IMG/VR virus record: IMGVR_UViG_3300028384_000897
Span: 1 to 54,784 of that record
Source: a virus
Lineage: Duplodnaviria > Caudoviricetes
Strand: one strand, 5' to 3'
Length of the DNA stretch: 54,784 nucleotides
A model generated the notes under the pieces. The model did no database searches, was not told where the DNA came from, and saw only the letters and a list, made by a program, of their open reading frames with translations. Shown piece after piece: positions 12,011-34,572 of the stretch (position 1 is its first letter; every line of letters begins with the position of its first letter). The position numbers and the translations under genes are program-made.

Positions 12011-14335
12011 TTAATGCCCATCTCTCCAATTGTTAGCTATCTCTGGTGGAGCTTTCAAAGTAACACCAGGTAGTTGAGTAGTAGTTTCCATAATCTCTTG
12101 AACATACGGAGCAAACATATCTGCATCCTTCTCATCAACGTTAATAATCAACTGGTCATGCACTTGAGCTTGAACACAAGCATCAATACCTAATTCTTTA
12201 GCCTTACGGTTTATCTTTAAAGCTGCTCTATTAACTACCGCTGCAGCTAAGGACTGAAGTTGGAAGTTCAAACAGTTATTAAGTCCGTTTCTATAATCTC
12301 TATAAACTTTGATTACTTGATCTCTTCCATATTGAGGTTCTAATTCTTTTCTAAACCTCCAGTCCATCATTCTTTCACCAAACTTCTCATATATCTTTTT
12401 AACTCTAGGTAAATGTCTTACTCTACCTACATAGTTTTTAATAAAGCCATGATCTTTAACTTGTTTACGAGAATCTTCTCTCCATTTAGCTAGACCCGGG
12501 AATCCATCTAAGTATCCTTTAATCAACTCTTCAGCAGTTTTTTGATCGACTCCCAAAGTCATTTTAAGAGCATAAGCCTCCATTCCGTAGGCAACCCCTA
12601 ACGAGTAGGCTTTAGCTTTATTTCTCTTAACAGGATCTAGCTTCTTTAGATAGTTATCAGCTTTTTTATCAGCAGATACTCCATCAATCTTCTCAGTTTG
12701 TATAGCGACATAAGAATAAAAATCCCAACCGTTATCAAAAATCTCTTGAAGTTTCTCATCACCAGATACTGATGCAAAGCAATGAGGTTCAAGAGATTCG
12801 TAATCAGCATCAATAACTTTTCTACCATTACCTGCAGTTAAGAAAGCACGTACTATATTAACGTACTTCATGATAACAGGAGCATCTTCACCTTCTTCTA
12901 AAGGTTTAGGTAGTTGCTGAGCATCACTACCGTATCTACCCGATACAGTACCGTTCTGCTTAAAGTAGAAGTAGTATTTACCGTCCTCTTGACGGTCTCT
13001 AAATCTATCTACATAAGTTGATTTAATCTTTAAAAGCTTATTGTAGACACGTAGATTCTCAGCCCAAGGATACTCTTTAGCTAAGTCTTTAACCATATCC
13101 ATATCAAACTTAGCTCTACCAGATTTAGTATTCGCACCTTTAACTTTAGGTTCAATACCCATATACTTAAACACAATTTCACCTAAGTGCTTCTTAGATT
13201 GAATATTGATATAATCACCATCGTTAGACTCCTTCCATAAGGACATAGATATCCTAGCACATTCTAGTTCATCAAGTACTTCTTTATTCCCAGTAAGTAA
13301 AAACTCTTTTACTGGAGAGTCATCTAATTCTTGTATATTCTTAGCAGTAAGTGAATACTTACCGGTCTTTTCAGATTTAGGTAAAGGTAAAGAATATCTC
13401 TGTACTAATCTTTGAGCAAAGTTACCTTTATGAGAACAAGGATATGCTTCAGTAGCAGTATCTACTACCCATGCTTTTACTTCCGGAAGAGCAAGTAATG
13501 ACTTCATCACTATCTCTTTGTTCTTAGCTTGATCTTCTACAATCTCAGAATGAATCTTATCTATAAGTTCCACATCTAAATCTACTCCGTAGGCTTCCAT
13601 AGGTACAGTTACCTCACGGTAGATAGGCATTACTTCTTCTTCGAAGAAAAAATCTTCGAGACCTTCCTGTCTAAGTTTATCAAGATATAGATTGCAGATT
13701 CGTAGAGTAAGATCGGTATCAGCACTAGCATATTTGCTAAGAATATCAAGGTCAGCTTTGTATATTTCAAAACTTTCTTTCGTAACGGATCCTCCATTTT
13801 TCTTTATACTTTCTTTTAGTTCAATTTGCTCCTGGTTAGCAGCTTCTTCTACGTTCAGGCCAAGAGCTTCCTGATTCATAATAGCAATAGACTTAAGCCC
13901 AAAAGGATTACCAAATCCAAATGCACCTTCCTCGTACACAGTATGTACAAGCAATCCTGTATCAACCCATACGTCGGGTAATAGGTCAATACCAAAATAA
14001 TTTTTTATAAACTGAACGTCAAATGAGGCATTATGGAAGACAAGTTTCTTACCTTTTAATGCTTTAAGTAAATTCTTAGATATAACTTCACTAGAAGTAC
14101 CATCGATAGTTTGAACTTCTAACTCTCCTTTTTCAAAGTTCCATACTAAAGTAGGAATATAGAATCCAATACCTTCATCACCAGATAGTGACCATCCTAC
14201 AATTTTATTCTTTCTAGGATTAAGACCAGAGGTCTCGGTATCGACTGCTATAACTTCTGACTCTTGAATGTGTTGAAACATTAATTTTAACGTCTCAGAG
14301 TCTTGGACGGTATAGTACTTTTTTTCTATATTCAT
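12011..14335 (-). CDS. polA: Family A DNA polymerase with 3'-5' exonuclease
   Basis: Exo motifs DTETSG, HNASFD and YASAD. Motif A DADYESLE, motif B RNKAKAYSLGVAYG, motif C QVHDQL. Confidence 0.95.
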   Translation of the reverse strand: MNIEKKYYTVQDSETLKLMFQHIQESEVIAVDTETSGLNPRKNKIVGWSLSGDEGIGFYIPTLVWNFEKGELEVQTIDGTSSEVISKNLLKALKGKKLVFHNASFDVQFIKNYFGIDLLPDVWVDTGLLVHTVYEEGAFGFGNPFGLKSIAIMNQEALGLNVEEAANQEQIELKESIKKNGGSVTKESFEIYKADLDILSKYASADTDLTLRICNLYLDKLRQEGLEDFFFEEEVMPIYREVTVPMEAYGVDLDVELIDKIHSEIVEDQAKNKEIVMKSLLALPEVKAWVVDTATEAYPCSHKGNFAQRLVQRYSLPLPKSEKTGKYSLTAKNIQELDDSPVKEFLLTGNKEVLDELECARISMSLWKESNDGDYINIQSKKHLGEIVFKYMGIEPKVKGANTKSGRAKFDMDMVKDLAKEYPWAENLRVYNKLLKIKSTYVDRFRDRQEDGKYYFYFKQNGTVSGRYGSDAQQLPKPLEEGEDAPVIMKYVNIVRAFLTAGNGRKVIDADYESLEPHCFASVSGDEKLQEIFDNGWDFYSYVAIQTEKIDGVSADKKADNYLKKLDPVKRNKAKAYSLGVAYGMEAYALKMTLGVDQKTAEELIKGYLDGFPGLAKWREDSRKQVKDHGFIKNYVGRVRHLPRVKKIYEKFGERMMDWRFRKELEPQYGRDQVIKVYRDYRNGLNNCLNFQLQSLAAAVVNRAALKINRKAKELGIDACVQAQVHDQLIINVDEKDADMFAPYVQEIMETTTQLPGVTLKAPPEIANNWRDGH

Positions 14336-15419: not shown

Positions 15420-15679
15420 TAGTATTCACCGTACAGATCAAATTTCATTGGTTCAGGTTCTTCAACTTGTACTTCGTGTTTCTTAATTGCATATAATTTA
15501 CCATCTAAAGGAGCTAATCTGTACTCACCTTTAAATTTAGTTCTACGCATGTACATGGTAAGAGCCATTACCAGCCCTTCGATAGTAGTTCCTTGATCAA
15601 TAGTCAATTCCCAATTATCTCCAGGCGGTACTCTTGTAGCTATTAGCTCTTTTTCCTCCTCAATGATGATCTCGGCCAT
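15419..15679 (-). CDS. Hypothetical protein
   Basis: Translationally coupled 86 aa ORF. Confidence 0.75.
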   Translation of the reverse strand: MAEIIIEEEKELIATRVPPGDNWELTIDQGTTIEGLVMALTMYMRRTKFKGEYRLAPLDGKLYAIKKHEVQVEEPEPMKFDLYGEY

Positions 15680-16590
15680 TACTGTCTTAGAGTTTTAGCG
15701 ATTCTATAATCCGTATCGGTAAAGAAATCTGGGATAAATCTTGAATGAGTAGCTCTAATAGGATTAATATCTAAGCCTCCTCTTCTAGTATATAAACAAG
15801 ATACCATAAGGTCTTCTGGTTGGTAAGCATCAGTCAAATGCTTAAACACCATTTCACAAATCTCTTCATGGAAATGACTTACAGTTCTATGAGATACAAT
15901 ATACTTAGCCACCGATTCAGGAGAAGGAATATTTTTTCCTTTCATTCTAATAAATACATCTCCCCAATCTGGTTGATTAGTAACTCTACAATTTGATCTT
16001 AATAAATTAGACCTTAACTTTACTTCTTTAGCTTCCTCTACTACAGTTTCAGTCTCTAATTGTGAAGCATCTGAAGAGAATGCGGTAAAATCGATTTGAT
16101 CTAAATCTGTAATATCAGCTAAATCTTGATAACCTTCGAATGATAATGCTTTACCGTCTTCTTCATCAGTATAGAAACTTACTGTCGTATCTGTTTCAAG
16201 TAACTTATCTAAATCGGCTTTTACTCTTTCTTCAATTTCTAAAATACACTCTACTGTATTATCTCCTAATCTAGTCATATTAAATGAATTTAAATACAGC
16301 TTAATAGACTTAGATTCTACGTGATATTCGGAATCTGAAGAACATACTATTTTTAACATACCCGCTACAGGTAATCCTTTAGTAGTAATTGCTGATACTT
16401 CGTAACAGTTCCAGGTATCTACACCTACAAAGTCTTTATTAGTTAACCCGTAACCTTCTCTATTTAAATAACGAGGTACTTTAACTAGCAACTCAGGAGC
16501 ATAGGTATCTTTATACCCATCTCCTCCTACTTTACCTAAATGCTTTGACGCAATGTCTACTACTTCTTGATAATTTTTTACTTCTGCCAT
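15679..16590 (-). CDS. queF: NADPH-dependent preQ0 reductase, bimodular QueF
   Basis: VESKSIKLYLNSF QueF motif, SNCRVTNQPDWG, FHEE, YTRRGGLDINP. Confidence 0.95.
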   Translation of the reverse strand: MAEVKNYQEVVDIASKHLGKVGGDGYKDTYAPELLVKVPRYLNREGYGLTNKDFVGVDTWNCYEVSAITTKGLPVAGMLKIVCSSDSEYHVESKSIKLYLNSFNMTRLGDNTVECILEIEERVKADLDKLLETDTTVSFYTDEEDGKALSFEGYQDLADITDLDQIDFTAFSSDASQLETETVVEEAKEVKLRSNLLRSNCRVTNQPDWGDVFIRMKGKNIPSPESVAKYIVSHRTVSHFHEEICEMVFKHLTDAYQPEDLMVSCLYTRRGGLDINPIRATHSRFIPDFFTDTDYRIAKTLRQ

Positions 16591-16593: not shown

Positions 16594-16965
16594 TTATCCT
16601 TTAAATAATTGTTTTTTGCCACCTTCATAAACATATGCGTGACCGTTTTCTATTAATAGTTTATTTAAAGAGGTTTCTTCTCCGTCGATATCAATAAATA
16701 TTTCAGCAAGTACTCGACCATACTTACCTTTTCCGAAAGATTGAATAACAAATTTACCGTCATTCATTTCCATATATTTTTTAGTAAACTCAGAAGCAGC
16801 TATTCCTAACTTTTTTTCTTCTAAATTTCTTGTTCTCTTTTCCCAGGTATCTACACCTTTGAATCTTAATCTAGCTTTAGTCCAAACATCAAAACCTAAA
16901 TCGATCATAACGTCTGCAGTATCGCCGTCTACTACTCTAAGTAGTTTTGCTCCGTATCTATACAT
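16594..16965 (-). CDS. Thermonuclease (SNase-like) protein
   Basis: RVVDGDT..IDLGF, GKYGRVLA and GHA motifs. Confidence 0.85.
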   Translation of the reverse strand: MYRYGAKLLRVVDGDTADVMIDLGFDVWTKARLRFKGVDTWEKRTRNLEEKKLGIAASEFTKKYMEMNDGKFVIQSFGKGKYGRVLAEIFIDIDGEETSLNKLLIENGHAYVYEGGKKQLFKG

Positions 16966-17338
16966 TTTTACTTTTTAAATATTTAACTAAATAACTTGCT
17001 GTTTTGTAATTTGTAGCAAGTGGAATATTATGAACATCACAAAGTCTCATCAACATTGAAATGTCTACATCATGAGGATGTTTATCCAATGGATCTCTTA
17101 AAAATATAACTAGGTTAATTTTACCTTCTGTAACTTGGGCTGCTATTTGTGCATCTCCACCTAGAGGTCCTGATTGTACAGTTTCTACATTAGTTATACC
17201 TGCATGTTTTACATGCTTACCCGTCGTTCCTGTTGTTATAATCCTAACATCTTCTCTATTAAAAAACGGTAATCTTTTAGAAACAAAAGCTACCATTTCT
17301 GCTTTTTTATTATCGTGCGCTATTAATGCAATTTTCAT
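16958..17338 (-). CDS. mgsA: Methylglyoxal synthase
   Basis: IALIAHDNKK, TGTTG, SGPLGGDAQI, DPL..HPHDVD and LATN motifs. Confidence 0.95.
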   Translation of the reverse strand: MKIALIAHDNKKAEMVAFVSKRLPFFNREDVRIITTGTTGKHVKHAGITNVETVQSGPLGGDAQIAAQVTEGKINLVIFLRDPLDKHPHDVDISMLMRLCDVHNIPLATNYKTASYLVKYLKSKNV

Positions 17339-17691
17339 ACTGTATTCTTAAAAAAATGTATCGTCCAAGCTATTAATCCGTTAAGTTGTAGTGCTACTAA
17401 ATTCCACTGTCTTCTTGAAAAGACTTGTATCAGTACGCATATAAATCCTACAATAAAGAATACTGGTTCAACAGTCCATTGTCCGGCAATCAAAAATCCA
17501 GTACCCATATATCCTATACGAGAAGACATTCTCTCCATAGGAGTTAAACGTCTATCTCTAACCAATATCCTCAGTATACTATTAGTCCATGTTCTTTCGC
17601 AAGATCTACATGTCTTTTTTCTAGTACCGTCTTTTTTCTTTTTATACCTAAAATCAGGTTTGTTATACTTACAGACGTTGCATTTTCTCAT
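17335..17691 (-). CDS. Zn-finger plus membrane hypothetical protein
   Basis: CNVC...CRSC followed by hydrophobic helices. Confidence 0.7.
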   Translation of the reverse strand: MRKCNVCKYNKPDFRYKKKKDGTRKKTCRSCERTWTNSILRILVRDRRLTPMERMSSRIGYMGTGFLIAGQWTVEPVFFIVGFICVLIQVFSRRQWNLVALQLNGLIAWTIHFFKNTV

Positions 17692-18206
17692 TTAATAAAT
17701 TCCATTATCTGTTCTACCCTTTGCATCGGAGAACCAGTAATAGTCAAATAAGGTTGACGTACTCCTCCTAGTACAGCCTTAAACTCATCATCTACTTGTT
17801 TTCTCCATTCCTCATTAACACTTCTAACTCCATCATCTATCGAATCAAATTCAATAGGAAAGTACACATAATGAGTATATTCATTCTTAACTCTATTCCA
17901 AGTATCTTCAATATAGTTATATGCCTTTACAGATAATTTATCCATAAACTTAGAATATACGAGTAAATCCATATAACACCTATCTAGCACTAAGTTATAA
18001 GGTTGAAGTAAAGCTTCTAAATGAAAACTACTAATAGCTAACTGAGTAGCATCAGTACCTTCTTCATTAATAGGGAATCCATAACCGCCAACAGTTCTAG
18101 TAGACTCATTTACAAATTCATACTTAGGTAACTTATTTTTAAGTAATTCATAAACAGTAGTCTTACCTGTACTACTAGCTCCTACTAATGCTATTCTTGT
18201 TATCAT
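17688..18206 (-). CDS. P-loop nucleotide/nucleoside kinase-like (AAA_28/NadR-like)
   Basis: GASSTGKTT Walker A, LDR motif, DDGVR lid. Confidence 0.8.
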   Translation of the reverse strand: MITRIALVGASSTGKTTVYELLKNKLPKYEFVNESTRTVGGYGFPINEEGTDATQLAISSFHLEALLQPYNLVLDRCYMDLLVYSKFMDKLSVKAYNYIEDTWNRVKNEYTHYVYFPIEFDSIDDGVRSVNEEWRKQVDDEFKAVLGGVRQPYLTITGSPMQRVEQIMEFIK

Positions 18207-18253
18207 AAAACCTATTTTACTATAATATACGAATTATTATTCTACTTACAAAC

Positions 18254-19018
18254 TCAATGCATGTCTTTTTGATACTTCTCAACAAACCATACATACTCTT
18301 TATAGTTTTGAATCTTTTTAACTTCTTCTCTTAAGAATTTACCATCAATCCATTGTCCGTCATCAAAATCTAATTCTTCCTGTAAATCGTGGCGAAGTAA
18401 AGTAAAATCAAACCAACGATCCATTTCTAATATATCTACTTCTTTTTCTGTTAAGTACTTACCTAACGATCTGTGATAGTCTAATTTATAGAAAGCATTA
18501 TCATCAGCATCTACATAGGTTGTATATAAATCAGCTAAAATATCTAAAGCTTCTCTGTTAGCAATTAAAATTTTATCTTCCATTCTCTTAGTATCCTCTT
18601 GGATCCTATCTAAATGAAAAACTGTAGGTTTATTTACTTTACTCCAGGTCTCTATAAAATTGTTAAATAATACTTCACTATCAGTTTTATCCTCAAATTT
18701 TAAGTCCGGACGAGCAATGATATAGAAGTCGTATTCTTTATTAAACTTTTTACGAAATTCAACACTTTCTCTTAAACAGTAATAATACTGTATAAGTGAA
18801 CCTGTTTTGATAACAGGCTCTTTAATTAATTGTAAATTATCTATTGAGTATAGATTACCTTCCTTTAATTGCTTTACAGAGTAATTATCTTCCCAGAATG
18901 TACCGTATGTATCTACCTGGTATCCAAACTCATTTAACTTATTAATAAATGAGCCTAAAGTTTTTTGCAACTCCCACCATCGGAGCTGACCGAACAATTC
19001 TATACTAACTCTTTTCAT
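18254..19018 (-). CDS. Glycosyltransferase-like hypothetical protein
   Basis: N-terminal ELFGQLR and YDFYIIARPDL motifs typical of phage GT-like proteins. ATG 19018 overlaps the upstream stop. Confidence 0.5.
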   Translation of the reverse strand: MKRVSIELFGQLRWWELQKTLGSFINKLNEFGYQVDTYGTFWEDNYSVKQLKEGNLYSIDNLQLIKEPVIKTGSLIQYYYCLRESVEFRKKFNKEYDFYIIARPDLKFEDKTDSEVLFNNFIETWSKVNKPTVFHLDRIQEDTKRMEDKILIANREALDILADLYTTYVDADDNAFYKLDYHRSLGKYLTEKEVDILEMDRWFDFTLLRHDLQEELDFDDGQWIDGKFLREEVKKIQNYKEYVWFVEKYQKDMH

Positions 19019-19554
19019 TGTAATGTAGCACGTAGAAAATTGCACCACATATAGAGACTTCTATCTCTTAGAATTCTAAATAGATCATCAAGAGTATTAT
19101 TCATATTATTAAACCTTTCTTCCATAATAACTCTACCCTCATCAACTCCAGCAGTAACGTGATGAATTACAGCTCCTGCAATAGGATACTTACCTTCAAA
19201 AGCTCTAACTTGAGGATCTTTACCTTTTAGTTCTGGGTATTCAGTTATAAGGCCAGGATGTCCGTTAAACACTCTAAACTTTTCGCAAATCTCAGGAGGC
19301 ATAATTCTCAACCAACCATGTAACGTGATTATAGCTTCCGGAAAGTAAACTAAAAAGTCTTCATACTCCTCTAAAGTAGGTTTATTGTTAAGAGTAAAAA
19401 ACCCTTGCTTTACTATTCTTTCATCAATAGTTCTTAAATGATCAGGTCTTTCATTAGTATATATTCTATCCGGCCATCTTCCTAATGACTCTGCAATATC
19501 TGCGATTTCTGCTCCTGTCTGACTAAAAAATGCTATCCAAACCTTCGTTTCCAT
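19015..19554 (-). CDS. PurN-like formyltransferase (DpdN-like preQ1 formyltransferase)
   Basis: FSQTG, LHGWLRI, FNGHPG and IHHVTAGVDEG formyltransferase motifs; adjacent to the DpdA-like gene. Confidence 0.85.
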   Translation of the reverse strand: METKVWIAFFSQTGAEIADIAESLGRWPDRIYTNERPDHLRTIDERIVKQGFFTLNNKPTLEEYEDFLVYFPEAIITLHGWLRIMPPEICEKFRVFNGHPGLITEYPELKGKDPQVRAFEGKYPIAGAVIHHVTAGVDEGRVIMEERFNNMNNTLDDLFRILRDRSLYMWCNFLRATLQ

Positions 19555-20347
19555 TTGCGTACCATCTAAATTTTTGAATATTAGTTCTAATACTAGATAA
19601 AGTATCAGGACTTACATCTTCGTTAATTAATTCAAACAACTTTTGAGATTCCTTTGACCATAAGCCACCTGATTTGTATTCAATACCTTTTATTCCATGG
19701 ACCACTGGATTACTAGTATCCAAAGAATATAACCAATTATAGTTAGCATGTTTATAAAATTGAAATTCCTGAGGTAAACCACAGCCTAGTAAATGATGAG
19801 GTTTATCTTCATTAATAACACCGTCTTTAAGTAAATCTCCAAGTAACTTAACACGTCCTAGCATCCAACTAACATACTTGTTAGGATGAGGTACAGACTG
19901 TGTATAATACGAATAATCGAAAGATATAGCAATCATATCTACATCTGCTTCTTTATTCATATAATTGTAACAATCTACTATCTCATCGTAAGTTTTACCT
20001 TGAATAACTCCTATTTTGCCGCTACCTTCATAACCAAGACCTTTATTATTCCAGTCTTCCATTTGTTTGCAAGTTTTATCAGCATTCTCTAAAGCATCTG
20101 GAACAATATACCAAGCAGGTCTAATTTCGTTAACCCACTTATCAAACTTATTAGCATCGAAAGCCTCTTCTAACTCAAATATTGAATTATCTAATATTAC
20201 TTCTCTACCTTTTAAGATAGCTTTTTTAAACTGAGCTAGATACTCTGGATCTTCTTCAAATAAATGAACCAAAGCATAATCGTAGTCAGTAAACTTTTGA
20301 ACTTCTTCAAAAATACTTTTAGGACTTTCGTGTGCTATTTTAATCAT
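19523..20347 (-). CDS. dpdA: TGT-fold 7-deazaguanine transglycosylase (DpdA-like, probably the DpdA3 type)
   Basis: ILDNS, VPD, GVIQG, HHLLG and SLDTS follow the TGT/DpdA barrel motif order; located inside the que cluster. Confidence 0.75.
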   Translation of the reverse strand: MIKIAHESPKSIFEEVQKFTDYDYALVHLFEEDPEYLAQFKKAILKGREVILDNSIFELEEAFDANKFDKWVNEIRPAWYIVPDALENADKTCKQMEDWNNKGLGYEGSGKIGVIQGKTYDEIVDCYNYMNKEADVDMIAISFDYSYYTQSVPHPNKYVSWMLGRVKLLGDLLKDGVINEDKPHHLLGCGLPQEFQFYKHANYNWLYSLDTSNPVVHGIKGIEYKSGGLWSKESQKLFELINEDVSPDTLSSIRTNIQKFRWYANGNEGLDSIF

Positions 20348-20525
20348 TATCTAATTTAGTGTTTAACGTATTGGTAATATTTTTAAGATAACCTTCAACC
20401 TTTGTCATCTCTTTATCTAGCCTAGAATTATAGCTGAAGACTTCTTTGATTGCCTTATCAGCTATCTCTAAAGGAACATACTTTACTCCATCTACTACCT
20501 TAATATGTTCGTTAAGATTAATCAT
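20340..20525 (-). CDS. Hypothetical protein
   Basis: Coupled 61 aa ORF. Confidence 0.7.
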   Translation of the reverse strand: MINLNEHIKVVDGVKYVPLEIADKAIKEVFSYNSRLDKEMTKVEGYLKNITNTLNTKLDND

Positions 20526-21060
20526 TAAAAAACTGTTTTAAGTTAGGTCTAAAATAATTAATACTTTTCATTACTTTCCTATCAGCTGTTCGGTAGACAA
20601 TATACCGTCCTTCCGCAATCTTCTCAAAATGGCAGGCCTGACCTTGTTCCTCACTTCTCTTGCTGACGGTCTGTATGGCTTCTTCTTCAGTTTTGCAAGC
20701 TTTCGACATATTACTAGCTTGTACCTCTTGATATGCCGGCCATATCTTATCCTTAAGACCGTGTAACATAGTACCGTTCCCAAGGGAAACATAAGTAATG
20801 TCGCACAAAGCGTCCAAAACTTCCACAATGTCGCCTCTCTCGCAAGCTTCTCTATACTCTTCGAGTTCTTCAAGGATAAAGTCATAGACGAATTGCCATT
20901 CTTTTTTCTCTGGGATTGTGGGTTCATAATTGTTAGGTTTACCGAATGTTGCGTTAAAAATTTCTACTTCGTTAACAAAAGGAACATCAGCACTTAGTCC
21001 AGTGCTAGGATCCATTCCTGGTTCAAGATTTTCAAATAATGATAATTGTTTACCTTTCAT
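20518..21060 (-). CDS. MazG-like (all-alpha) nucleoside-triphosphate pyrophosphohydrolase
   Basis: EELEEY...EVLDALCDITYV...EVQASNMSK. Confidence 0.85.
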   Translation of the reverse strand: MKGKQLSLFENLEPGMDPSTGLSADVPFVNEVEIFNATFGKPNNYEPTIPEKKEWQFVYDFILEELEEYREACERGDIVEVLDALCDITYVSLGNGTMLHGLKDKIWPAYQEVQASNMSKACKTEEEAIQTVSKRSEEQGQACHFEKIAEGRYIVYRTADRKVMKSINYFRPNLKQFFND

Positions 21061-21397
21061 AATCGTCTTCGTATCTAGTTATATCATCTTCACCGAAATA
21101 AGTTCCGGTTTGTACTTCTATAAAGTTAATTTTATGATTCGTTTTATTCCATGCACGATGTTTTGAACCTTGAGGTATTTGGATTGTTTCTCCAGGTACA
21201 ACAGTATGTTCTACATCATCTACTATAACTGTTAATGTACCATTTACACATGTCCATGCCTCTTTTCTCAATTTATGAGACTGGTATGATAACCTCTGAT
21301 GAGGAGCTACGGTTATTAATTTAACTTTAGTAAACTGAGTATCTAATAATACGTCGTAACATCCCCAAGGTCTTTCATCATGTTCTAATGCTTGCAT
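21050..21397 (-). CDS. Cupin, mannose-6-phosphate isomerase type II C-terminal-like
   Basis: RPWG, LSYQSH and EVQTGTYFGEDDI motifs. Confidence 0.85.
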   Translation of the reverse strand: MQALEHDERPWGCYDVLLDTQFTKVKLITVAPHQRLSYQSHKLRKEAWTCVNGTLTVIVDDVEHTVVPGETIQIPQGSKHRAWNKTNHKINFIEVQTGTYFGEDDITRYEDDYER

Positions 21398-22053
21398 ATA
21401 CCTGCTAATTCTATATTTTTATAAAACTCTGCTCTAGCCGAATCTTCGTTTAAGAAACATCCGGTTAACTTAGCTGTTTGCATAGATGCACCGTGATGCT
21501 TAACTCCTCTACAACTTACACAGTTATGAGTTGCATCAATCATTACAGCTACTCCTAAGTTACCTTCACATATCTTATCAATAGCATTGTGAATAGCTAC
21601 GGTAAGCTGCTCTTGAATAGCACCTCGTCTACCAAAATGCTCTACAATTCTATTTAACTTAGATAGACCCACAACTTTACCGTTCTTAGAAGGTACATAA
21701 GCTATACTAACTTTACCGCCGATAGTTTGATGGTGATGACTGCACATAGAAGTAACTGGTATATTACTCTCTTGTACAATACCGTCGTAACCGTCAGAAG
21801 GAAATGCAGTAATCTCAGAAGGTGCATCGTAGCGTCCTTTCCAAAGATCAAATACATACGCTTTAGCCACTCTTCGAGGAGTGTCAGCTGAATTAGGATC
21901 GTTTCTCCAATCACAACCTAAAGCATCTAAAAATTTACCATAGGCCTCGGCTGCTTCTTCTACCATAGACCATTTTTCTTTTTCTGTAAAAGGAAAGCCA
22001 GGAGCTACTCCATTTGCATAACCTGCTTTTACGAGTTCTAAATCTTTACTCAT
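21385..22053 (-). CDS. folE: GTP cyclohydrolase I
   Basis: TPRRVAK, SMCSHH, GLSKLNR, IQEQLT and HNCVSCRG motifs. Confidence 0.97.
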   Translation of the reverse strand: MSKDLELVKAGYANGVAPGFPFTEKEKWSMVEEAAEAYGKFLDALGCDWRNDPNSADTPRRVAKAYVFDLWKGRYDAPSEITAFPSDGYDGIVQESNIPVTSMCSHHHQTIGGKVSIAYVPSKNGKVVGLSKLNRIVEHFGRRGAIQEQLTVAIHNAIDKICEGNLGVAVMIDATHNCVSCRGVKHHGASMQTAKLTGCFLNEDSARAEFYKNIELAGICKH

Positions 22054-22085
22054 CTATAACTTTGTTTATACTTTAATATATGAAT

Positions 22086-22496
22086 TTATTTTTTATTATC
22101 CAAATAATCCTGTATAGGTTTTGAATCTTCTTTTTCCCAAGGGTAGACTATCCACCCAAAATCTTTATCAATTTTTTCACCGTAGTAATCAGGTTTAAAA
22201 GTTGATACTTCTTTATATTGAAGAGCAGCATACTTAGGGTTAGGAAACTGCTCTTTTAATTTTGAAAATGTTTTTCCTGAATCTGCAATATCATCGATAA
22301 TTAGTAAATTAGGGTAATGGTCACTTTTATACTCCATGTAAGGTATATCGAATCTATGTGAATACAAAATTGCTAGTAATGTACCTCCTCTAGGTACTCC
22401 AGTTACATAAGTTATTTCTTCTTTACATTGCTCGTAAATAATATCGAGAAGATTATTTATATCGTCCCATGTTAAATAGTGTTTTTTTATACTCAT
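22086..22496 (-). CDS. Type I phosphoribosyltransferase (Gpt-like)
   Basis: GVPRGG, LIIDDIADSGKT PRPP-binding loop, WIVYPWE. Confidence 0.9.
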   Translation of the reverse strand: MSIKKHYLTWDDINNLLDIIYEQCKEEITYVTGVPRGGTLLAILYSHRFDIPYMEYKSDHYPNLLIIDDIADSGKTFSKLKEQFPNPKYAALQYKEVSTFKPDYYGEKIDKDFGWIVYPWEKEDSKPIQDYLDNKK

Positions 22497-23017
22497 AATA
22501 ATGATTTGGATTTTCCCATATTGTATGCCGATAGTAGTAGAACTGCAGAATACCTAATACCTGATGTGACAGGGCATGCTTGATGCAAATAGTCGGAGGA
22601 AAATAGTACCGTATTACCTAATTCCTTAGATACAGTATACTCTTCATCATTTTCATCCCAAATTTTTAAATCCCCGCCATCATAATAATCGTTTAATTGT
22701 ATAGATAAAGTTCTATAATAAGCAGCATTATATGTAGATGAATTATCTCTATGCCTTTTAAATTGTTGATCTTTGCCGTACCTTAAAATTTTTATAGTTT
22801 CAGGAAGATTCTTAACTCCTAATACTTCTAATTTATTAAGAAGGAACTCTTTTAGTTTACCGCCTATTTTTATTTTACTTTGATCGGAAGTTCTAGTATG
22901 ATTATATCTACCTTCAGGGTAAGCAGCACTATAAACTAGACTTCTAGAAAAGTCTTTAGCGCAATCAAGTATAAATTCACAATCTTGTTTACTAAAGATA
23001 ATCTCTTCTTTAATCAT
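22493..23017 (-). CDS. 2OG-Fe(II) oxygenase
   Basis: HRD...H...R motif, YDGGDL. Confidence 0.85.
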   Translation of the reverse strand: MIKEEIIFSKQDCEFILDCAKDFSRSLVYSAAYPEGRYNHTRTSDQSKIKIGGKLKEFLLNKLEVLGVKNLPETIKILRYGKDQQFKRHRDNSSTYNAAYYRTLSIQLNDYYDGGDLKIWDENDEEYTVSKELGNTVLFSSDYLHQACPVTSGIRYSAVLLLSAYNMGKSKSLL

Positions 23018-23186
23018 TTGTAGTAGTCATAACCCAACCTGGGGTTTTAATATAGTGTTTATTTTTATTAATCCCTACAGATTCTAGTTTCTCTTTTAAC
23101 TCATCCCATTGCTTGGGTGTAATATTGTAATGGTGCACTCCTTGTGCAAAACCTCTTAACCATTGAACAAACTCTTTATCCGACAT
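23010..23186 (-). CDS. Small hypothetical protein (58 aa)
   Basis: Not in the ORF track. MSDKEFVQWLRGFAQG...; overlaps both neighbours. Confidence 0.7.
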   Translation of the reverse strand: MSDKEFVQWLRGFAQGVHHYNITPKQWDELKEKLESVGINKNKHYIKTPGWVMTTTND

Positions 23187-23487
23187 ATTCTAATCCAAAA
23201 AATTTATAGTTATTTTTAACAGCATCTAATTCTCCAGCATCTATAGCATCCTCTTCACTATCAAATATAGCTTCAACTGGGCATTCGGGAACACAAGCTC
23301 CACAATCAATACATTCTTCAGGGTTAATATATAAACTCTTACCTTGAAGTTCTTCTTTACTCATATTAGCTACTTCAGCACCAGCTCCATCGATATCTAT
23401 AGGTCCGTGAATGCAGTCGACAGGGCAAACTGCTACACAGGCTGTGTCACAAGTACTAATGCATGGAGAACCTATAATAAAACTCAT
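23176..23487 (-). CDS. Ferredoxin (dicluster, 7Fe/8Fe type)
   Basis: C..C..CPVDC and CIDCGACVPECP. Confidence 0.92.
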   Translation of the reverse strand: MSFIIGSPCISTCDTACVAVCPVDCIHGPIDIDGAGAEVANMSKEELQGKSLYINPEECIDCGACVPECPVEAIFDSEEDAIDAGELDAVKNNYKFFGLEYVG

Positions 23488-24260
23488 ACCTCTCTTTGAT
23501 CATTAAATGCCATAATATGAGCCCTACCTGTAAATCTCCATCCTCTATCTCTTACAAAATCCATTACTTTAGGATAAGATTCAAACAAAGAATCTCTGGT
23601 ATCCCCTGCTGGCATTGCCCATACTTTATCATCTGGTATATCTAAATCTTTTAAGAACTCTTCTACTTCATCTAGGATACTAAATTCTTTATCGAGTACA
23701 GGTTTAATATGATAATCTTTATGATACTCTATAGATTGTTTTATAGCTTCTTTATTTACTCTAAATCTATTGTGAGTTTTAATCATTTTTTCGTCGACCA
23801 CTTTTCCTTGAGGAGTAAGAGTCCCAACAACGGGGATACTATTACTAAATTTAGGAGAAATACTGAGAAGATCGATAGGATAATCAGTAGGAAGGAAATG
23901 AGATCCTTCGTTTTCAATAGTAATAAATATACCGTTTTCATGAGCAAAATGTGTTAGTTCATTAACAAGCTTTTTATGCATAGTAGGTGAACCTCCAGTA
24001 AGCATCATTTCTTTAATATGAGGATTCTCTTCATATTTTTTGATAATATCATTAAAAGAATATTTACCTTTTTCAGGATGAATCGAAGTATACCAACTAT
24101 CACACCAACCGCCTTCACCGAAGTAACATCTATGTGTACATCCAGTAGTTCTAATTACTATAGTAGGAAAACCTTGTCTACTACCTTCCGATTGAACTGC
24201 GGTATATACTTCTACTATAGGTAAATTTTTATCGTAATCTTCAATCCTGCCCAGGCTCAT
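23484..24260 (-). CDS. queE: 7-carboxy-7-deazaguanine synthase (radical SAM)
   Basis: QSEG..G, RTTGCTHRCYFGEGGWCDS, LTGG, SISPK. Confidence 0.93.
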   Translation of the reverse strand: MSLGRIEDYDKNLPIVEVYTAVQSEGSRQGFPTIVIRTTGCTHRCYFGEGGWCDSWYTSIHPEKGKYSFNDIIKKYEENPHIKEMMLTGGSPTMHKKLVNELTHFAHENGIFITIENEGSHFLPTDYPIDLLSISPKFSNSIPVVGTLTPQGKVVDEKMIKTHNRFRVNKEAIKQSIEYHKDYHIKPVLDKEFSILDEVEEFLKDLDIPDDKVWAMPAGDTRDSLFESYPKVMDFVRDRGWRFTGRAHIMAFNDQREV

Positions 24261-24714
24261 ATATTGCTGAATTTTTATTATGTTCTCTAAATTCTACTTT
24301 AGCTATTTTTACCCTACCGTTAGTTTCCTTTACGATAAAAGGGTTAACTTTATTGTAGATAAACTCTGCAAATTTCTCTGCTCCTACTGCAGGTATGACT
24401 CGTAACTGAATAATACCTTTAGAACCTAGTCTTGTGAAAGAGTCTAAAGAAGGATCATCTTCAGCCATAACTACGGTATGGTCAAACATATAATCAAACC
24501 ACTCCTTAGGACTCATCCCATCAATTTTACCTTCAGCTCTCTTCATTCCACCGAAATCCCATACCCAGTTACGATTATCTAAATCTCCTTCAAAAGTTAA
24601 TTTAAACGATACGCCGTACCCGTGTAAGAATTTACAGTGAGTTGTTTTTGCTTTCCATTGACGAAAACAAGTAGAAAATCCGTCAAATACTTTAGTTGAT
24701 TTAAAATTTCCCAT
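24241..24714 (-). CDS. queD: 6-carboxy-5,6,7,8-tetrahydropterin synthase
   Basis: HCKFLHGY, VWDFG, FDH and GAE motifs. ATG 24714 is coupled to the upstream stop. Confidence 0.93.
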   Translation of the reverse strand: MGNFKSTKVFDGFSTCFRQWKAKTTHCKFLHGYGVSFKLTFEGDLDNRNWVWDFGGMKRAEGKIDGMSPKEWFDYMFDHTVVMAEDDPSLDSFTRLGSKGIIQLRVIPAVGAEKFAEFIYNKVNPFIVKETNGRVKIAKVEFREHNKNSAIYEPGQD

Positions 24715-24992
24715 TATACTAATTCTTCTATTATACCAACAACTTCTGATAACACTAAAATACCTGCAGCCCAAGGAAGGCTAAAAGGTATAAGTATATA
24801 ACCTAATATACGAATTCCTGATTTAATAAACGACACAATTTGGTGTTTTTTTGCGTCCGGATAGTTTTGGGATTGATTTGGAGAAGCTTTTACTGCTTCT
24901 TGATCAAGCAGATAATCTGCTCTTAATACTCTTCTTGATTCTGGATCTCTAAGAGAATCCATAATCTCTTTTTCTGTAGAATTATTTACCAT
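24714..24992 (-). CDS. Small membrane protein, first gene of the riboswitch-led operon
   Basis: Two C-terminal hydrophobic helices. Confidence 0.75.
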   Translation of the reverse strand: MVNNSTEKEIMDSLRDPESRRVLRADYLLDQEAVKASPNQSQNYPDAKKHQIVSFIKSGIRILGYILIPFSLPWAAGILVLSEVVGIIEELV

Positions 24993-25076: not shown

Positions 25077-26462
25077 TTAAGTTATTCTTATCCATTCTTT
25101 TCCATCACTCCAAACCTTAGCAGATTGGTAAGATGAACTTATAATAAACGGATCAGACGAACCATTTATAGTATTTGAACCAGATCCATACAATTTAAAA
25201 AATTTAGCATTAGTAATAGTACTATCAGCTTGAAGTCGTATGTACCTGTATGTATTATAGTTAAATTGAGCAGGCGGTAATCTTAACTCTGCTTCACCGT
25301 CACTACCAGAATAATTTAGGTATACCATTTCAGTTCTACTGTATGTACTTCCTGTTAAGAAAATTACGTCAGAAGCTGAACCAGAGACTATAGTAGGTAA
25401 TATGTGTTCTTTCGTAGTTGCAGATGTCGAAATTTTTACCTGTTTAAATGAACTTGTTTGGGCAGCTTCTATATAAGAACCTGTTTGAGCTTCTATCCTT
25501 TCTACCCTACCTTCGTAGGATTCTTCAGCAAAAATGTTTACTAATGAACCACTATGGTTTAATAATTCGATAATACTAGTCTCGTTCGTTTCTACTCTTA
25601 ATTGAATTGAAGAAGAGAATGTAGTATGCTGTACTTCCCTATCGTTTTCATTTTGGTTAATAGTAGAATCAATAGAAGAAGAAACTAAAGTGAAAGAACC
25701 GCTAATTTGATTTTTTAATGCATAAGATCCTGTTGCTGCATTTAATCCACTAACATCAGAATGTACTATATTATCAAACCTAGTTGCTATAGAAGAACTT
25801 AATTCATTGAACGAACCACTTATTTGTGTTTTAATAGCATATGAACTAGTAGCAGCATTTAAACTACTTACTGCTGTTGATACTTCTGTATCTGTAGCAA
25901 ATGTTGCGTCTAAAGATGAACTAAAATTTTCTTGATCAGCTAATCTAAGAGCTAATGAACTAGAAACAGTATTAAATGATCCTGAAATACTTGTTTTTAA
26001 AGCATAAGATCCTGTTGCTGCATTTAATGCACTAACTGCAGTGGTTAATTCAGCATCTGTGGCAAAATCATTATTTAGAGATGAACTAAAGTCTAATAAC
26101 TGAGCTGTTTCTAAAGCTAGAGAACTAGATACAGCTTCTAATTCCGCATCTGTTGCAAAATCATTATTTAACGAAGCACTAAAATCTAGTAATTGAGCTG
26201 TTTCAGAAGCAAGTGAGCTAGATACTGTGCTAAGTTCTGCATCTGTAGCAAATGTATCGTTTAATGAAGAGCTAAAGTTATCTAATCTAGTTAAAGATTC
26301 AGAAACGTTACTATGTCCAGTAATGGATAAGGTTCCATTTACTGTCAAATCCGACATAGATCCGGAAAGAGTATTTCCTAAACCATCTTGCAACACAGCA
26401 CCATCGACTTGTACAAGACGTTTATAGGTTTTATTGATTTGTTTGTTAGTAAAGTTTGCCAT
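25077..26462 (-). CDS. Ser-rich repeat-containing fibre-like virion protein
   Basis: Repeats LDFSSSLNNDFATDAEL and LNAATGSYALKxQISGSF; C-terminal WSDGKEW; late-type motif upstream. Confidence 0.6.
   Translation of the reverse strand: MANFTNKQINKTYKRLVQVDGAVLQDGLGNTLSGSMSDLTVNGTLSITGHSNVSESLTRLDNFSSSLNDTFATDAELSTVSSSLASETAQLLDFSASLNNDFATDAELEAVSSSLALETAQLLDFSSSLNNDFATDAELTTAVSALNAATGSYALKTSISGSFNTVSSSLALRLADQENFSSSLDATFATDTEVSTAVSSLNAATSSYAIKTQISGSFNELSSSIATRFDNIVHSDVSGLNAATGSYALKNQISGSFTLVSSSIDSTINQNENDREVQHTTFSSSIQLRVETNETSIIELLNHSGSLVNIFAEESYEGRVERIEAQTGSYIEAAQTSSFKQVKISTSATTKEHILPTIVSGSASDVIFLTGSTYSRTEMVYLNYSGSDGEAELRLPPAQFNYNTYRYIRLQADSTITNAKFFKLYGSGSNTINGSSDPFIISSSYQSAKVWSDGKEWIRIT
25680..26290 (-). 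repeat. Intragenic imperfect tandem repeats (~78-bp unit plus a second unit)
   Basis: For example gcataagatcctgttgctgcatttaat at ~25721 and ~26002, and repeated gcaaaatcattattta. Confidence 0.8.
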
Positions 26463-26488
26463 GAATACCAGTATATAGTATAAATAGC

Positions 26489-26605
26489 TTAAAAGTTTGT
26501 ATAGTTAAAAGGATCTCTTTTTTTTAATTCTTTGATCTTTTTCTTAAACTCTCTGTCTTTTTTCCACTGCTGGTATTTACCTTTTATCCACTTAATTAGT
26601 CTCAT
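26489..26605 (-). CDS. Small basic protein (38 aa) following the carbamoyltransferase
   Basis: Not in the ORF track. MRLIKWIKG...KKRDPFNYTNF. Confidence 0.65.
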   Translation of the reverse strand: MRLIKWIKGKYQQWKKDREFKKKIKELKKRDPFNYTNF

Positions 26606-28283: not shown

Positions 28284-28870
28284 AACTCCATTTCTTTTTT
28301 TAGATATTCAAACATTTGTTTATGACCTTTGATACCCCAGTGATGATCTGCATGTTTACTTTCTTTTGTAATAGTCGTAAACTTTCTCCACAGTAATTCA
28401 TCCCAGTAGTAGGCTTTAACTCTTCTTCTTTGAAAAGCAGTACATAAAAAATCGAAATTAGCTTGATTTCTTAGGTACACTTTATCTATGTGTTTTCTAA
28501 TATTTTTTAAAATAGCATCTGCTACTTGTTTACCTAGTAGAAGTTGACTATCCCTAATTGGCGCTACTCCAAAGAGACCTGCCTGCCAATGGTCTGGTTG
28601 ATATACGCCGAATCTTGCACATTTAGTCAAGCCTATTACTACTACATCGTTTCTCTGAATATCCTTATACCTATGTAGGATATTATCCCATATCATATCA
28701 TTAGATATACCGTGTACTCCGTGATTTTGATGTTTCATACCTAAATGGTCCGCTAATAATCTTGACCATATAAGGTGTTCTTTACCTTTATAAGTACCGT
28801 ATTGATGTTTATCGTCTGTAACACCTAATCCGGCTGTGAAAGAATCACCGAAGGCCCATAACGTATTCAT
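28280..28870 (-). CDS. SGNH-like hydrolase-fold protein
   Basis: AFGDSFTAG; DHHWG..GH. Confidence 0.65.
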   Translation of the reverse strand: MNTLWAFGDSFTAGLGVTDDKHQYGTYKGKEHLIWSRLLADHLGMKHQNHGVHGISNDMIWDNILHRYKDIQRNDVVVIGLTKCARFGVYQPDHWQAGLFGVAPIRDSQLLLGKQVADAILKNIRKHIDKVYLRNQANFDFLCTAFQRRRVKAYYWDELLWRKFTTITKESKHADHHWGIKGHKQMFEYLKKEMEL

Positions 28871-30709: not shown

Positions 30710-31504
30710 CTAAGCAGCGTATTCGGCTAGTAGTTTTTCAACATGTGCTTTCGCAACTTCGTAACTAACTGGTCCAGTCTCGTCTTCATATTGAACGGGA
30801 TCATCAACACCCAAATTAATAAATGCTTCAATCCTTTCAACAGATGACGCACTTTTGTAATCAGAGTTTCCTGATGGGTATGGTTTGTACGAGGTATTCG
30901 TTCTTCTGTATACTTCGCTAAAATCCAATTCCAATGCTTCTGTGAGTTTTTCTCCATCTTTAAGAATTCCTAATTTGTCAGTTTCCAAGTAAGGAGTAAA
31001 GTACCCTACTTTCTCTGCTTCCCAGTTACCTATTCTAAAGGCAGCATCGTCAGCATCTCTAAACTCTTGTCTACAGTCTGGGTAGATAGCATGATCACCA
31101 GCATGAATACCTAACGCAATATCAGTATCTAAACCATTTGCATTAGCAGCTGATAAAGCTACAGCTTGAGTAATAGAAGCAAATATTTTATTCCTATTAG
31201 GAACAACAGTTGCTTTCATGTTATCTTCTTCGTAATGACCTTCTGGTACATCTTCACCACCTTGAACAAGGTTAGAATTTAACAGGTTAACTAAACCATC
31301 TAGTTTAATCACTTGATAAGTCACTTTTTGACCTTTATCTGCTAGATAATCGACCAATTGTTGAGCTCTTTCAAGTTCTACTCTATGCTTTTGACCGTAA
31401 TCAAAAGATAAAGCTGTTACGTTGTCATACTCAGATAAACATCTAAGTAATAATGTTGAGGAGTCCATCCCTCCACTAAGACTAACTACGACATTTTTTG
31501 CCAT
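30710..31504 (-). CDS. queC: 7-cyano-7-deazaguanine synthase
   Basis: SLSGGMDS, FDYGQKH, TVVPNRN, DHAIYPDCR. Confidence 0.95.
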   Translation of the reverse strand: MAKNVVVSLSGGMDSSTLLLRCLSEYDNVTALSFDYGQKHRVELERAQQLVDYLADKGQKVTYQVIKLDGLVNLLNSNLVQGGEDVPEGHYEEDNMKATVVPNRNKIFASITQAVALSAANANGLDTDIALGIHAGDHAIYPDCRQEFRDADDAAFRIGNWEAEKVGYFTPYLETDKLGILKDGEKLTEALELDFSEVYRRTNTSYKPYPSGNSDYKSASSVERIEAFINLGVDDPVQYEDETGPVSYEVAKAHVEKLLAEYAA

Positions 31505-34563: not shown

Positions 34564-34572
34564 ATCTTAATC

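Follow-up and report, generated by a model that had tools for sequence, protein, structure and literature searches.

A guanine-replacement locus of an immuto-like Flavobacterium phage and a possible nucleotide-level role for the transglycosylase DpdA3

At what stage does a phage exchange the guanine of its DNA for a 7-deazaguanine: in the polymer, after replication, or in the nucleotide pool, before it? This question is raised by a viral DNA of 54,784 nucleotides (IMG/VR record IMGVR_UViG_3300028384_000897, a 54.8-kb record with a completeness estimate of 36%; hereafter, the window), which, judged by its genes, carries the system for complete guanine replacement of the immuto-like Flavobacterium phages, in which the replacing base is 7-formylaminomethyl-7-deazaguanine (fdPreQ1). 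The window shares with phage immuto_2-6A the order of the genes for a phosphoribosyltransferase (PRTase), FolE, a MazG-like hydrolase, DpdA, a formyltransferase, a ‘thymidylate kinase’, QueF and PolA. Three of its proteins are 74% (DpdA3), 67% (kinase) and 50% (DpdN) identical to those of immuto, DpdA3 and DpdN by tblastn. The names DpdA3, for the transglycosylase subfamily, and DpdN, for the formyltransferase, are taken from Cui 2023 (PMC10516641). Compared with immuto, the window adds an open reading frame (ORF) of 264 aa, a cupin, a 2-oxoglutarate (2OG) oxygenase and a block of approximately 5.6 kb between QueD and QueC. The modified base has been measured in the DNA of immuto, in which no dG was detectable and 345,000 fdPreQ1 per million nucleotides were found (Cui 2023, PMC10516641), whereas the phage of the window is known here from its genes alone. 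The locus is a further instance of a known system.

According to Cui 2023 (PMC10516641), each phage with 7-deazaguanine DNA encodes some member of the DpdA family, and replacement was 100% in all three types of DpdA3 phage tested but at most 30% with the other DpdA subfamilies. The model published there leaves MazG, the kinase and the PRTase unused; the P-loop gene of phage phiST, CGPG_00066, was set aside because sequence homologues were missing from other phages, and the ADG nucleoside is reported from the cytoplasm of CP220-infected cells. The idea of replacement before replication is not new in outline, because a 2019 proposal for the Campylobacter phages, quoted in Hutinet 2019, had the polymerase use a modified dGTP. 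That idea was abandoned in 2023 after the recognition of DpdA3 (Cui 2023, PMC10516641). Hutinet 2019 also raised ‘undetected 2′-deoxyribosyltransferases’ for phages without DpdA. A search of one literature library returned the terms ‘DpdA3’ and ‘fdPreQ1’ only from Cui 2023, and nothing from after 2023 that puts DpdA3, or a route through 7-deazaguanine dNTPs, to the test. In the literature searched, we did not find the pre-replicative idea linked to DpdA3 together with a conserved kinase and pyrophosphatase.

We consider replacement of guanine in the free deoxynucleoside or deoxynucleotide pool before replication, through DpdA3, to be the better-supported reading of this locus, although it is unproven and we put its chances at about even. 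The support for it is that of association and anatomy; we also count in its favour the full replacement seen in the DpdA3 phages and the ADG nucleoside in the cytoplasm of infected cells (Cui 2023, PMC10516641). In the pathway that we propose, the MazG-like enzyme (elsewhere an HD-domain or dUTPase-fold enzyme) would hydrolyse dGTP to dGMP, thereby removing G from the pool and supplying the substrate, and DpdA3 would swap guanine for a 7-deazaguanine base on dGMP or deoxyguanosine. DpdN would then formylate the aminomethyl group, for which the mononucleotide would be the simplest stage; in the 7-deazaguanine branch of the family, DpdL rather than DpdN would tailor the side chain. The dedicated kinase would phosphorylate the product, host enzymes would take it to the triphosphate, and the phage PolA would polymerise the modified triphosphate. 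The Gpt-like PRTase would turn the released guanine into GMP and then GTP for FolE. Of the models that give each conserved gene a use, this is the most economical. An earlier note, made from the sequence alone, had proposed a pre-replicative route of this kind, with entry of preQ1 at the nucleotide level through the transglycosylase or the PRTase. The link of DpdA3 with a dNTP pyrophosphatase and a dedicated kinase in about ten lineages, set against canonical DpdA1 controls, supports the central idea of that proposal, a tie between guanine replacement and enzymes of the nucleotide pool; entry through the PRTase is not supported.

The window was annotated by Pfam, PHROG and NCBIfam scans. All of the cluster genes lie on the minus strand and, in the order of transcription, they encode QueC, a sugar-modification-type block, QueD, QueE, a ferredoxin, a 2OG-Fe(II) oxygenase, the Gpt-like PRTase, FolE, a cupin, the MazG-like protein, a 61-aa ORF, DpdA3, DpdN, the 264-aa orphan ORF, the P-loop kinase, three small genes (one a nuclease), QueF and PolA. 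The earlier note had described the PRTase, the MazG-like pyrophosphatase and the kinase as interleaved with folE, a 274-aa DpdA-like gene and a formyltransferase, and all six are indeed found in that arrangement: the PRTase (136 aa; 22086..22496), FolE (21385..22053; Pfam 2.4e-44), which is GTP cyclohydrolase I and catalyses the first step from GTP to the 7-deazaguanines, the MazG-like protein (20518..21060), DpdA3 (274 aa; 19523..20347), DpdN (19015..19554) and the kinase (17688..18206). To place this arrangement in context, it was compared with 80 immuto-like IMG/VR loci whose DpdA3 is 49-82% identical to that of the window. The counts, made by tblastn with the window proteins, are lower bounds because many loci are cut by contig ends. 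DpdN was found in 74 of the 80 loci, the kinase in 67, FolE in 66, QueF (directly after the kinase) in 63, the MazG-like gene (directly upstream of DpdA3) in 49, the PRTase in 39 and PolA (downstream of the cluster) in 36. Order and orientation agree with those of the window, and the arrangement is therefore not due to chance.

Kinase and pyrophosphatase genes set the DpdA3 loci apart from those of canonical DpdA1. The same strand was screened, up to 2.5 kb from the transglycosylase gene, for ORFs that span 110-270 aa and have a Walker A motif at the N-terminus. Such an ORF was present in 63/80 immuto-like DpdA3 loci (48/53 of those with full flanks) vs 3/80 canonical, 9g-like DpdA1 loci (2/69 with full flanks), and the positives among the controls form a single family of 112-aa ORFs. 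This strict screen overlooks GKD-type P-loops and fusion proteins longer than 270 aa; it scored 0/4 phiST-like and 0/25 Ahp1-like loci, and a homology search found kinase matches in 4/4 of the phiST-like loci. A Pfam scan of the same-strand ORFs of 100-400 aa up to 2 kb away covered 144 ORFs from 22 DpdA3 loci and 132 ORFs from 32 DpdA1 loci. Among the DpdA3 neighbours it returned AAA_28 in 15 cases, Formyl_trans_N in 15, PRA-PH in nine, DCD in four, dUTPase in three, and AAA_18, dNK and Thymidylate_kin in two each, none of which was seen in the DpdA1 set; Pribosyltran was found five times with DpdA3 and once with DpdA1. The DpdA1 neighbours belong to queuosine-pathway and miscellaneous families only, with no kinase and no pyrophosphatase among the 132 ORFs from 32 loci. 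Moreover, eight kinase and pyrophosphatase queries had no match at any of the 80 DpdA1 control loci, and six named phages with canonical DpdA (9g, Dp-1, Rosebush, ZHS, BcepGomr and RHEph04) have no Walker-A ORF. The sole match of the queries in these six phages was a marginal one of DNMK, in 9g, which falls within the gene annotated as Gat-QueC (25% identity, E 2.75e-4).

With the window included, a DpdA3-like gene was found beside a kinase of varied family, a dNTP pyrophosphatase of varied fold, or both, in about ten phage lineages. A kinase was counted as linked when it was next to the DpdA3-like gene or within two genes of it. An AAA_28 kinase is linked to DpdA3 in the window and in immuto; in CP220, DpdA3 stands between an HD+AAA_33 protein (gp055) and an AAA_28 kinase (gp057); in CC_R7, the order is QueC, DpdA3-like gene, AAA_28 kinase and DNA polymerase; and in Vibrio phage Bakedbeans, an AAA_28 protein is encoded two genes upstream of the DpdA3-like gene. 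Bacillus phage BSTP12 and Weizmannia phage Youna2 have a P-loop ORF, a DpdA3-like gene and PolA. An AAA_18 P-loop protein is found in Cellulophaga phage phiST (FolE, MazG-like, DpdL, AAA_18 P-loop, DpdA3) and beside a DpdA3-like gene in Chryseobacterium phage MA9V-3. In Aeromonas phage Ahp1 and Vibrio phage D479, the DpdA3-like gene precedes those for a T4-gp1-type dNMP kinase (DNMK) and a dCTP-deaminase/dUTPase-fold protein; two further loci (L110/L111) have this order as well, with a gp1-type DNMK and a protein of the dCTPase/dUTPase fold. The pyrophosphatases near DpdA3 are of three folds: MazG-like (window and phiST), HD domain (CP220) and dCTP-deaminase/dUTPase-like, the last in Ahp1, D479, Rhizobium phage RHph_I1_18 and locus L106, and in 23/25 Ahp1-like loci. 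The recruitment of kinases from different families suggests a simple metabolic job that has been filled repeatedly.

Several of these genes are also fused. In L106 (L106:4082-4993) and L107-109 (L107:2489-3454), the gene directly upstream of DpdA3 encodes a fusion of an AAA_18 kinase with DpdL, which is QueD-like and a putative CDG decarboxylase; in L106 a PRTase gene and a dUTPase-fold gene precede the fusion. Among the 50%-identity representatives of the DpdA3 family, there are two DpdA3-DpdN fusions (P0169 and P0187) and one fusion of an AAA_28 kinase to DpdA3 (P0255), a singleton to which we give little weight. In RHph_I1_18 a DpdA3-DUF3310 fusion (L218:4001-5269) is accompanied by the dUTPase-fold protein, and DUF3310 is likewise fused to the DpdA3-like protein P0272. 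A small ORF that resembles DUF3310 by its N-terminal residues alone follows DpdN in immuto-like loci without the kinase (L070:7207-7551, L072:7309-7563 and L082:8166-8429). Among the publications listed for DUF3310, no title or opening of an abstract points to a function.

The DpdA3 of the window belongs to its subfamily by sequence kinship with immuto (74%), the CP220 group (41-42%, E 1e-45 or better) and phiST (25%, E 3e-4) in tblastn, and by the accompanying genes for 7-deazaguanine synthesis. The protein has no Pfam match, and a PDB sequence search returned nothing useful. Its AlphaFold2 (AF2) model (pLDDT 96.9) nevertheless suggests a minimal TIM barrel of the superfamily of tRNA-guanine transglycosylase (TGT) and DpdA: bacterial TGTs are the best matches in Foldseek (E 2e-8, TMq 0.63), and VIA-align gives Z 17.9 with archaeosine TGT 1iq8, 15.9 with bacterial TGT 3unt, 16.9 with the DNA preQ0 insertase DpdA 7ui4 (237/413 residues aligned) and 14.2 with 9ntn_B, titled ‘Cap10-CdnD complex containing NDG modification’. 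The margin of this fold assignment is modest because generic TIM barrels follow at Z 12-15. In an alignment of 92 diverse homologues (22-58% identical to the window protein), D53, E58, R165, H185, D210 and N256 are invariant and D84 is nearly so. D210 is located at the end of strand 8 in the model and is the putative nucleophile; in hhalign, D53 of the DpdA3 profile falls opposite the Asp-Ser-Gly motif of 9g DpdA, a hint only, given a probability of merely 2.2%. We regard D53 and D210 as the candidate catalytic aspartates; bacterial DpdA acts through Asp95 and Asp256 (Gedara 2023, PMC10164549).

Most of the insertion with which the relatives of DpdA3 hold nucleic acid is absent from it. In bacterial DpdA, the insertion Ins8 between beta8 and alpha8 spans 128 residues, is pinned by the Zn site CXCX2CX22H, carries the essential Phe265 and, together with Ins1, builds a positively charged surface for double-stranded DNA (Gedara 2023, PMC10164549). 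In TGT, the anticodon stem-loop is held by Ins3 and Ins8, and TGT and DpdA are described as having the Zn site in common (Gedara 2023, PMC10164549). In the DpdA3 model, only approximately 36 residues separate strand 8 (206-211) from the terminal helix (247-273), and no Cys or Zn motif is invariant or nearly so in the alignment of 92 sequences. The short Ins8 region and the missing Zn motif argue, as far as a model can, against polynucleotide binding in the manner of TGT. DpdA3 appears to share the TIM barrel with bacterial DpdA/DpdB and with phage DpdA1/DpdA2, and it may share the catalytic Asp residues, for which it has candidates; it differs from bacterial DpdA and from DpdA1/DpdA2 in that it is without the conserved Zn motif and a short stretch replaces Ins8; its loci differ from those of canonical DpdA in their kinase and pyrophosphatase neighbours and in the extent of replacement. 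The family is large, with 3545 proteins at E <= 0.001 (90%-identity clusters) and 1385 among the 50%-identity representatives; the DpdA3-like protein of a Bacillus phage found no relatives when it was scanned against viral contigs. One viral contig encodes tandem DpdA3 paralogues of 265 and 289 aa (L082:6001-6798 and 6791-7660).

The P-loop protein (Pfam AAA_28 8.5e-16, 59 bits vs a cut-off of 27) has a G-x4-GKT motif and a D-G-x-R-S region that are invariant in an alignment of 26 sequences, and it is 30% identical to CP220 gp057, likewise a neighbour of DpdA3. A PDB sequence search with it gave weak matches only. In Foldseek, the best matches of its AF2 model (pLDDT 91.1) are the NadR RNK domain (TMq 0.79) and deoxyadenosine, deoxyguanosine and thymidylate kinases; deoxycytidine kinases and YorR are matched as well, and all of the listed PDB matches through rank 50 are a nucleoside or nucleotide kinase or NadR. 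The model therefore places the protein in the nucleoside/nucleotide-kinase clan (dNK / Tmk / NadR-RNK). A bona fide thymidylate kinase was considered and rejected, the NCBIfam model TIGR00041 scoring 21 bits vs a cut-off of 83. We propose that the kinase phosphorylates a 7-deazaguanine deoxynucleoside or deoxynucleotide; the modelled fold is compatible with either a nucleoside or a monophosphate.

The MazG-like protein is assigned by its sequence to the all-alpha NTP pyrophosphohydrolases with a MazG/PRA-PH domain (Pfam PRA-PH 1.1e-9, 39 bits vs a cut-off of 21.3; PHROG 671 ‘nucleotide pyrophosphohydrolase’ 1.5e-27), and it is our proposed enzyme for the conversion of dGTP to dGMP. It has no PDB sequence match, and it is not alignable by BLASTP with the MazG of phiST, with which it shares the same broad class by Pfam only. 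DpdN is a PurN-like formyltransferase by its Formyl_trans_N domain, which scores above the cut-off (5.5e-9), by its matches to glycinamide ribonucleotide (GAR) transformylases in the PDB (down to 1.2e-8), by its invariant N97, H99 and D138, which align with the N/H/D catalytic residues of E. coli PurN, and by its being encoded with DpdA and the FolE-to-QueF genes; on this basis, it is the predicted source of the formylamino group of fdPreQ1. The N-terminal loop of PurN binds the 5′-phosphate of GAR, and the alignment indicates that DpdN keeps the corresponding S-x-x-G loop. This loop is compatible with a mononucleotide acceptor and is no proof of one.

The PRTase appears to be Gpt-like in its sequence, although the Pfam model Pribosyltran (25.2 bits) falls just under its cut-off of 26.3 and the NCBIfam model of xanthine PRTase (1.8e-9, 37 bits) is below its cut-off of 138. 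It matches the PHROG ‘phosphoribosyl transferase’ (5e-17) and, in the PDB, the purine/xanthine-guanine PRTases 1vdm (1.6e-9), 4trb and E. coli XGPRT 1a95 (3e-3), with whose purine-PRTase sequences its acidic-Asp-x-x-Asp-Ser-Gly-x-Thr loop aligns. Homologues of the window PRTase also lie 0.8-2 kb upstream of canonical DpdA1 in 24/80 control loci (within L151-L213), an association that goes unmentioned in the accessible text of Cui 2023, Gedara 2023 and Hutinet 2019. Because of this occurrence beside DpdA1, its presence in only 39/80 close relatives and its position adjoining folE, the entry of preQ0 or preQ1 through the PRTase, as suggested in the earlier note, is not upheld. The PRTase most likely salvages guanine to GMP, toward the GTP that FolE requires.

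The same genes have been, or may be, read in other ways. On the published model, each G of the replicated DNA is swapped for preQ1 or its formyl derivative by DpdA3, a DNA transglycosylase of unusual efficiency; the MazG-like enzyme, the kinase and the PRTase would serve as helpers of nucleotide metabolism in general, for example in a guanine-to-GMP-to-GDP-to-GTP loop that feeds FolE. The TGT/DpdA fold of DpdA3, whose invariant Asp residues occupy the presumed catalytic positions, agrees with this model, as does the DpdA family member in all phages with 7-deazaguanine DNA (Cui 2023, PMC10516641) and the action of canonical DpdA on DNA (Gedara 2023, PMC10164549). The PRTase beside folE, also found with DpdA1, fits guanine recycling, and a GMP-kinase role would close the loop. 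However, the model leaves the dNTP pyrophosphatases without a role, although three folds of them recur with DpdA3, and canonical DpdA clusters need the same GTP supply yet are without kinases and pyrophosphatases. Moreover, DpdA3 is without most of the nucleic-acid-binding insertion of DpdA and TGT, and attempts to test it in E. coli failed (Cui 2023, PMC10516641). We rate the published model as unlikely, though still a serious competitor. A variant that keeps the action of DpdA3 on DNA would make the P-loop protein its ATPase cofactor, a functional analogue of DpdB instead of a metabolic kinase. The insertion of preQ0 into DNA by bacterial DpdA depends on the ATPase DpdB (Gedara 2023, PMC10164549), and no partner of DpdA3 shows a tighter linkage than the P-loop gene. 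However, DpdB is ParB-like and no P-loop kinase (Gedara 2023, PMC10164549), a co-evolving cofactor would be expected to be orthologous, whereas at least four kinase families (AAA_28, AAA_18, DNMK and the Bacillus type) occupy this position, and the model of the window protein matches, through rank 50 of the listing, nucleoside and nucleotide kinases and no DNA-acting ATPases, which speaks against a DpdB-like role. We consider this variant very improbable.

A further explanation takes up the PRTase alternative of the earlier note and runs through ribonucleotides. The PRTase could join preQ1 or preQ0 to PRPP, the kinase could produce the diphosphate, ribonucleotide reductase (RNR) could reduce it and the polymerase could use the triphosphate, with DpdA3 mopping up residual G or having another target. 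The PRTase, the kinase and both RNR subunits are present in the window, and DpdA3 clusters repeatedly have PRTases, which are of two subtypes, a Gpt-like one in the window and an Hpt-like one in L106. Against this route, the PRTase is found in only 39/80 close relatives, was not seen in the examined stretches of CP220, phiST and the Bacillus phages, and stands beside DpdA1 in 24/80 loci, where modification is partial and post-replicative. This route also leaves DpdA3, the universal gene, without a needed role. We believe that it is improbable.

Several observations weigh against our preferred reading, replacement in the free pool through DpdA3. The authors who defined DpdA3 concluded that its insertion of the base is post-replicative (Cui 2023, PMC10516641). 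The action of DpdA3 on free nucleotides is inferred, and all of the pairwise comparisons and tallies amount to guilt by association. To our knowledge, members of the TGT superfamily act on a polymer, namely tRNA, DNA or, in the case of Cap10, protein. The associations are also incomplete: among the 53 immuto-like loci with full flanks, five have a cluster without a kinase, the MazG-like gene was found in only 49/80 close relatives, and a DNMK homologue is beside DpdA3 in only 2/25 Ahp1-like loci; the kinase-DpdA3 fusion P0255 is a single sequence from a single 2.9-kb contig. In addition, the large control set is one clade of approximately 60-kb phages, whereas most DpdA3 phages are large and rich in nucleotide metabolism, and part of the contrast between DpdA3 and DpdA1 may therefore be one of genome style. 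The anatomical argument is one of degree only, because phage DpdA1 (317 aa, 9g-type) is also shorter than bacterial DpdA and has no invariant CxCxxC in a seven-sequence alignment. Finally, the median isoelectric point (pI) of DpdA3 (5.48, n=92) is close to that of 9g-like DpdA1 (5.71, n=10), and pI and net charge, which do not separate the two groups, were dropped as a proxy for DNA binding.

The remaining genes of the window complete the pathway or surround it. QueC (30710..31504; Pfam QueC 4.1e-39) and QueD (24241..24774; Pfam PTPS 3.9e-13; 50/80 loci) lie upstream of a QueE-like radical SAM enzyme (23484..24260), whose Pfam match (Radical_SAM 2.2e-6) is below the cut-off and whose position matches that of QueE in immuto (47/80 loci). 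The adjacent 4Fe-4S ferredoxin (23176..23487; Pfam Fer4 families; 14/80 loci) is its likely electron donor. QueF, the nitrile reductase from preQ0 to preQ1, is of the bimodular type (15679..16590; Pfam QueF_N 1.8e-27, QueF 6.1e-17). The PolA of the cluster (12011..14335; Pfam DNA_pol_A 5.9e-57, DNA_pol_A_exo1 3.2e-12), a family A DNA polymerase with 3′-5′ exonuclease, is the candidate polymerase for the modified nucleotide. The earlier note had placed RNR and two PolAs nearby. Both RNR subunits are found by Pfam on the minus strand at 32848-35550, the large (alpha) at 32848-34563 (Ribonuc_red_lgC 2.1e-102) and the small (beta) at 34573-35550 (Ribonuc_red_sm 9.2e-64); only one PolA is full, and the second is a weak, sub-threshold match at 40932-42257 (31.2 bits vs a cut-off of 34.3). 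A staphylococcal-nuclease-like nuclease (16594..16965; Pfam SNase 2.1e-11; 14/80 loci) may provide dNMPs from host DNA.

Other genes of the region are peculiar to the window or rare among its relatives. The 264-aa ORF between DpdN and the kinase (18254..19048, GTG start) has no Pfam or PHROG match, is without a homologue in all 80 related loci and is a phage-specific insertion; like the 61-aa ORF and the cupin, it goes unmentioned in the earlier note. The 61-aa ORF (20340..20525) has no family match in Pfam or PHROG and has weak homologues at the same position in 8/80 loci. The cupin (21050..21397), which resembles the C-terminal domain of mannose-6-phosphate isomerase (Pfam MannoseP_isomer 1.5e-26; 11/80 loci), has no clear role in guanine replacement, and the 2OG-Fe(II) oxygenase (22493..23017; Pfam 2OG-FeII_Oxy_3 2.6e-13) occurs in 0/80 related loci. 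A methylglyoxal synthase homologue (16958-17338, minus strand; NCBIfam 159 bits vs a cut-off of 84) stands within the nucleotide-modification cluster, and only 1/80 related loci has one. The sugar-modification-type block of approximately 5.6 kb between QueD and QueC (25077-30708, minus strand) encodes a NodU/CmcH-type carbamoyltransferase (26592-28283), a GDSL hydrolase, an NAD-dependent epimerase/dehydratase, a fragment of a short-chain dehydrogenase/reductase, a second 2OG oxygenase and a 461-aa orphan ORF. It has the appearance of an insertion because QueC is only approximately 5-6 kb from DpdA3 in some related loci, and it could represent a sugar-nucleotide auxiliary pathway or a further modification. 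A GroEL-type chaperonin (9479-11116, minus strand; Cpn60_TCP1 3.7e-74) is encoded by immuto as well. A megablast search of the region against the phage collection gave no match.

Replacement in the free pool through DpdA3 would resemble two known pre-replicative pathways. T4 makes its hydroxymethylcytosine (hmC) nucleotide with the dCTPase gp56, the dCMP hydroxymethylase gp42 and the dNMP kinase gp1. The route proposed here would likewise destroy a canonical dNTP, modify the dNMP, re-phosphorylate it with a phage kinase and polymerise the product; unlike T4, it would exchange a base instead of modifying one. The 2-aminoadenine pathway of the Z-genome phages, with MazZ, PurZ and DatZ, is similar in its MazG-type pyrophosphatase, its exclusion of the canonical purine at the level of the pool and its complete replacement. 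However, here a free base from the queuosine pathway needs to be attached to deoxyribose, and no PurZ-like enzyme is present. For that attachment, a precedent in reaction type is given by the nucleoside 2′-deoxyribosyltransferases, which act on free deoxynucleosides and swap one purine base for another by way of a covalent deoxyribosyl-enzyme intermediate, although their fold is unrelated to that of DpdA3. A gene annotated as of this kind lies near the canonical DpdA of Edwardsiella phage ZHS (L223:4718-5128), and one of the 132 control ORFs is of this kind as well; none was seen in the DpdA3 clusters. All four classes of gene that a pre-replicative pathway would use, namely those for a pyrophosphatase, a modifying enzyme, a kinase and a polymerase, are present and linked in the window, as candidates for these roles.

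Few natural DNA chemistries are as extreme as the full exchange of guanine for a 7-deazaguanine, and no activity has yet been demonstrated for the enzyme to which it is ascribed. In its strongest form, our proposal is that DpdA3 is the first enzyme of the TGT superfamily that acts on free deoxynucleotides or deoxynucleosides and that, with a dGTP pyrophosphatase and a kinase, it constitutes a further pre-replicative pathway, common to phages of Flavobacterium, Cellulophaga, Campylobacter, Bacillus, Vibrio, Aeromonas and Rhizobium, which would overturn the post-replicative model. We advance this wider claim tentatively and judge it somewhat more likely to fail than to hold. If the swap takes place on nucleotides, the reconstitutions attempted so far, for which no pyrophosphatase or kinase is mentioned, would have lacked both enzymes. 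A small, defined set of genes would then be expected to give fully 7-deazaguanine-substituted DNA in a heterologous host, enzymatic 7-deaza-dGTP analogues would be expected from the same set, and the TGT fold would gain a new class of substrate.

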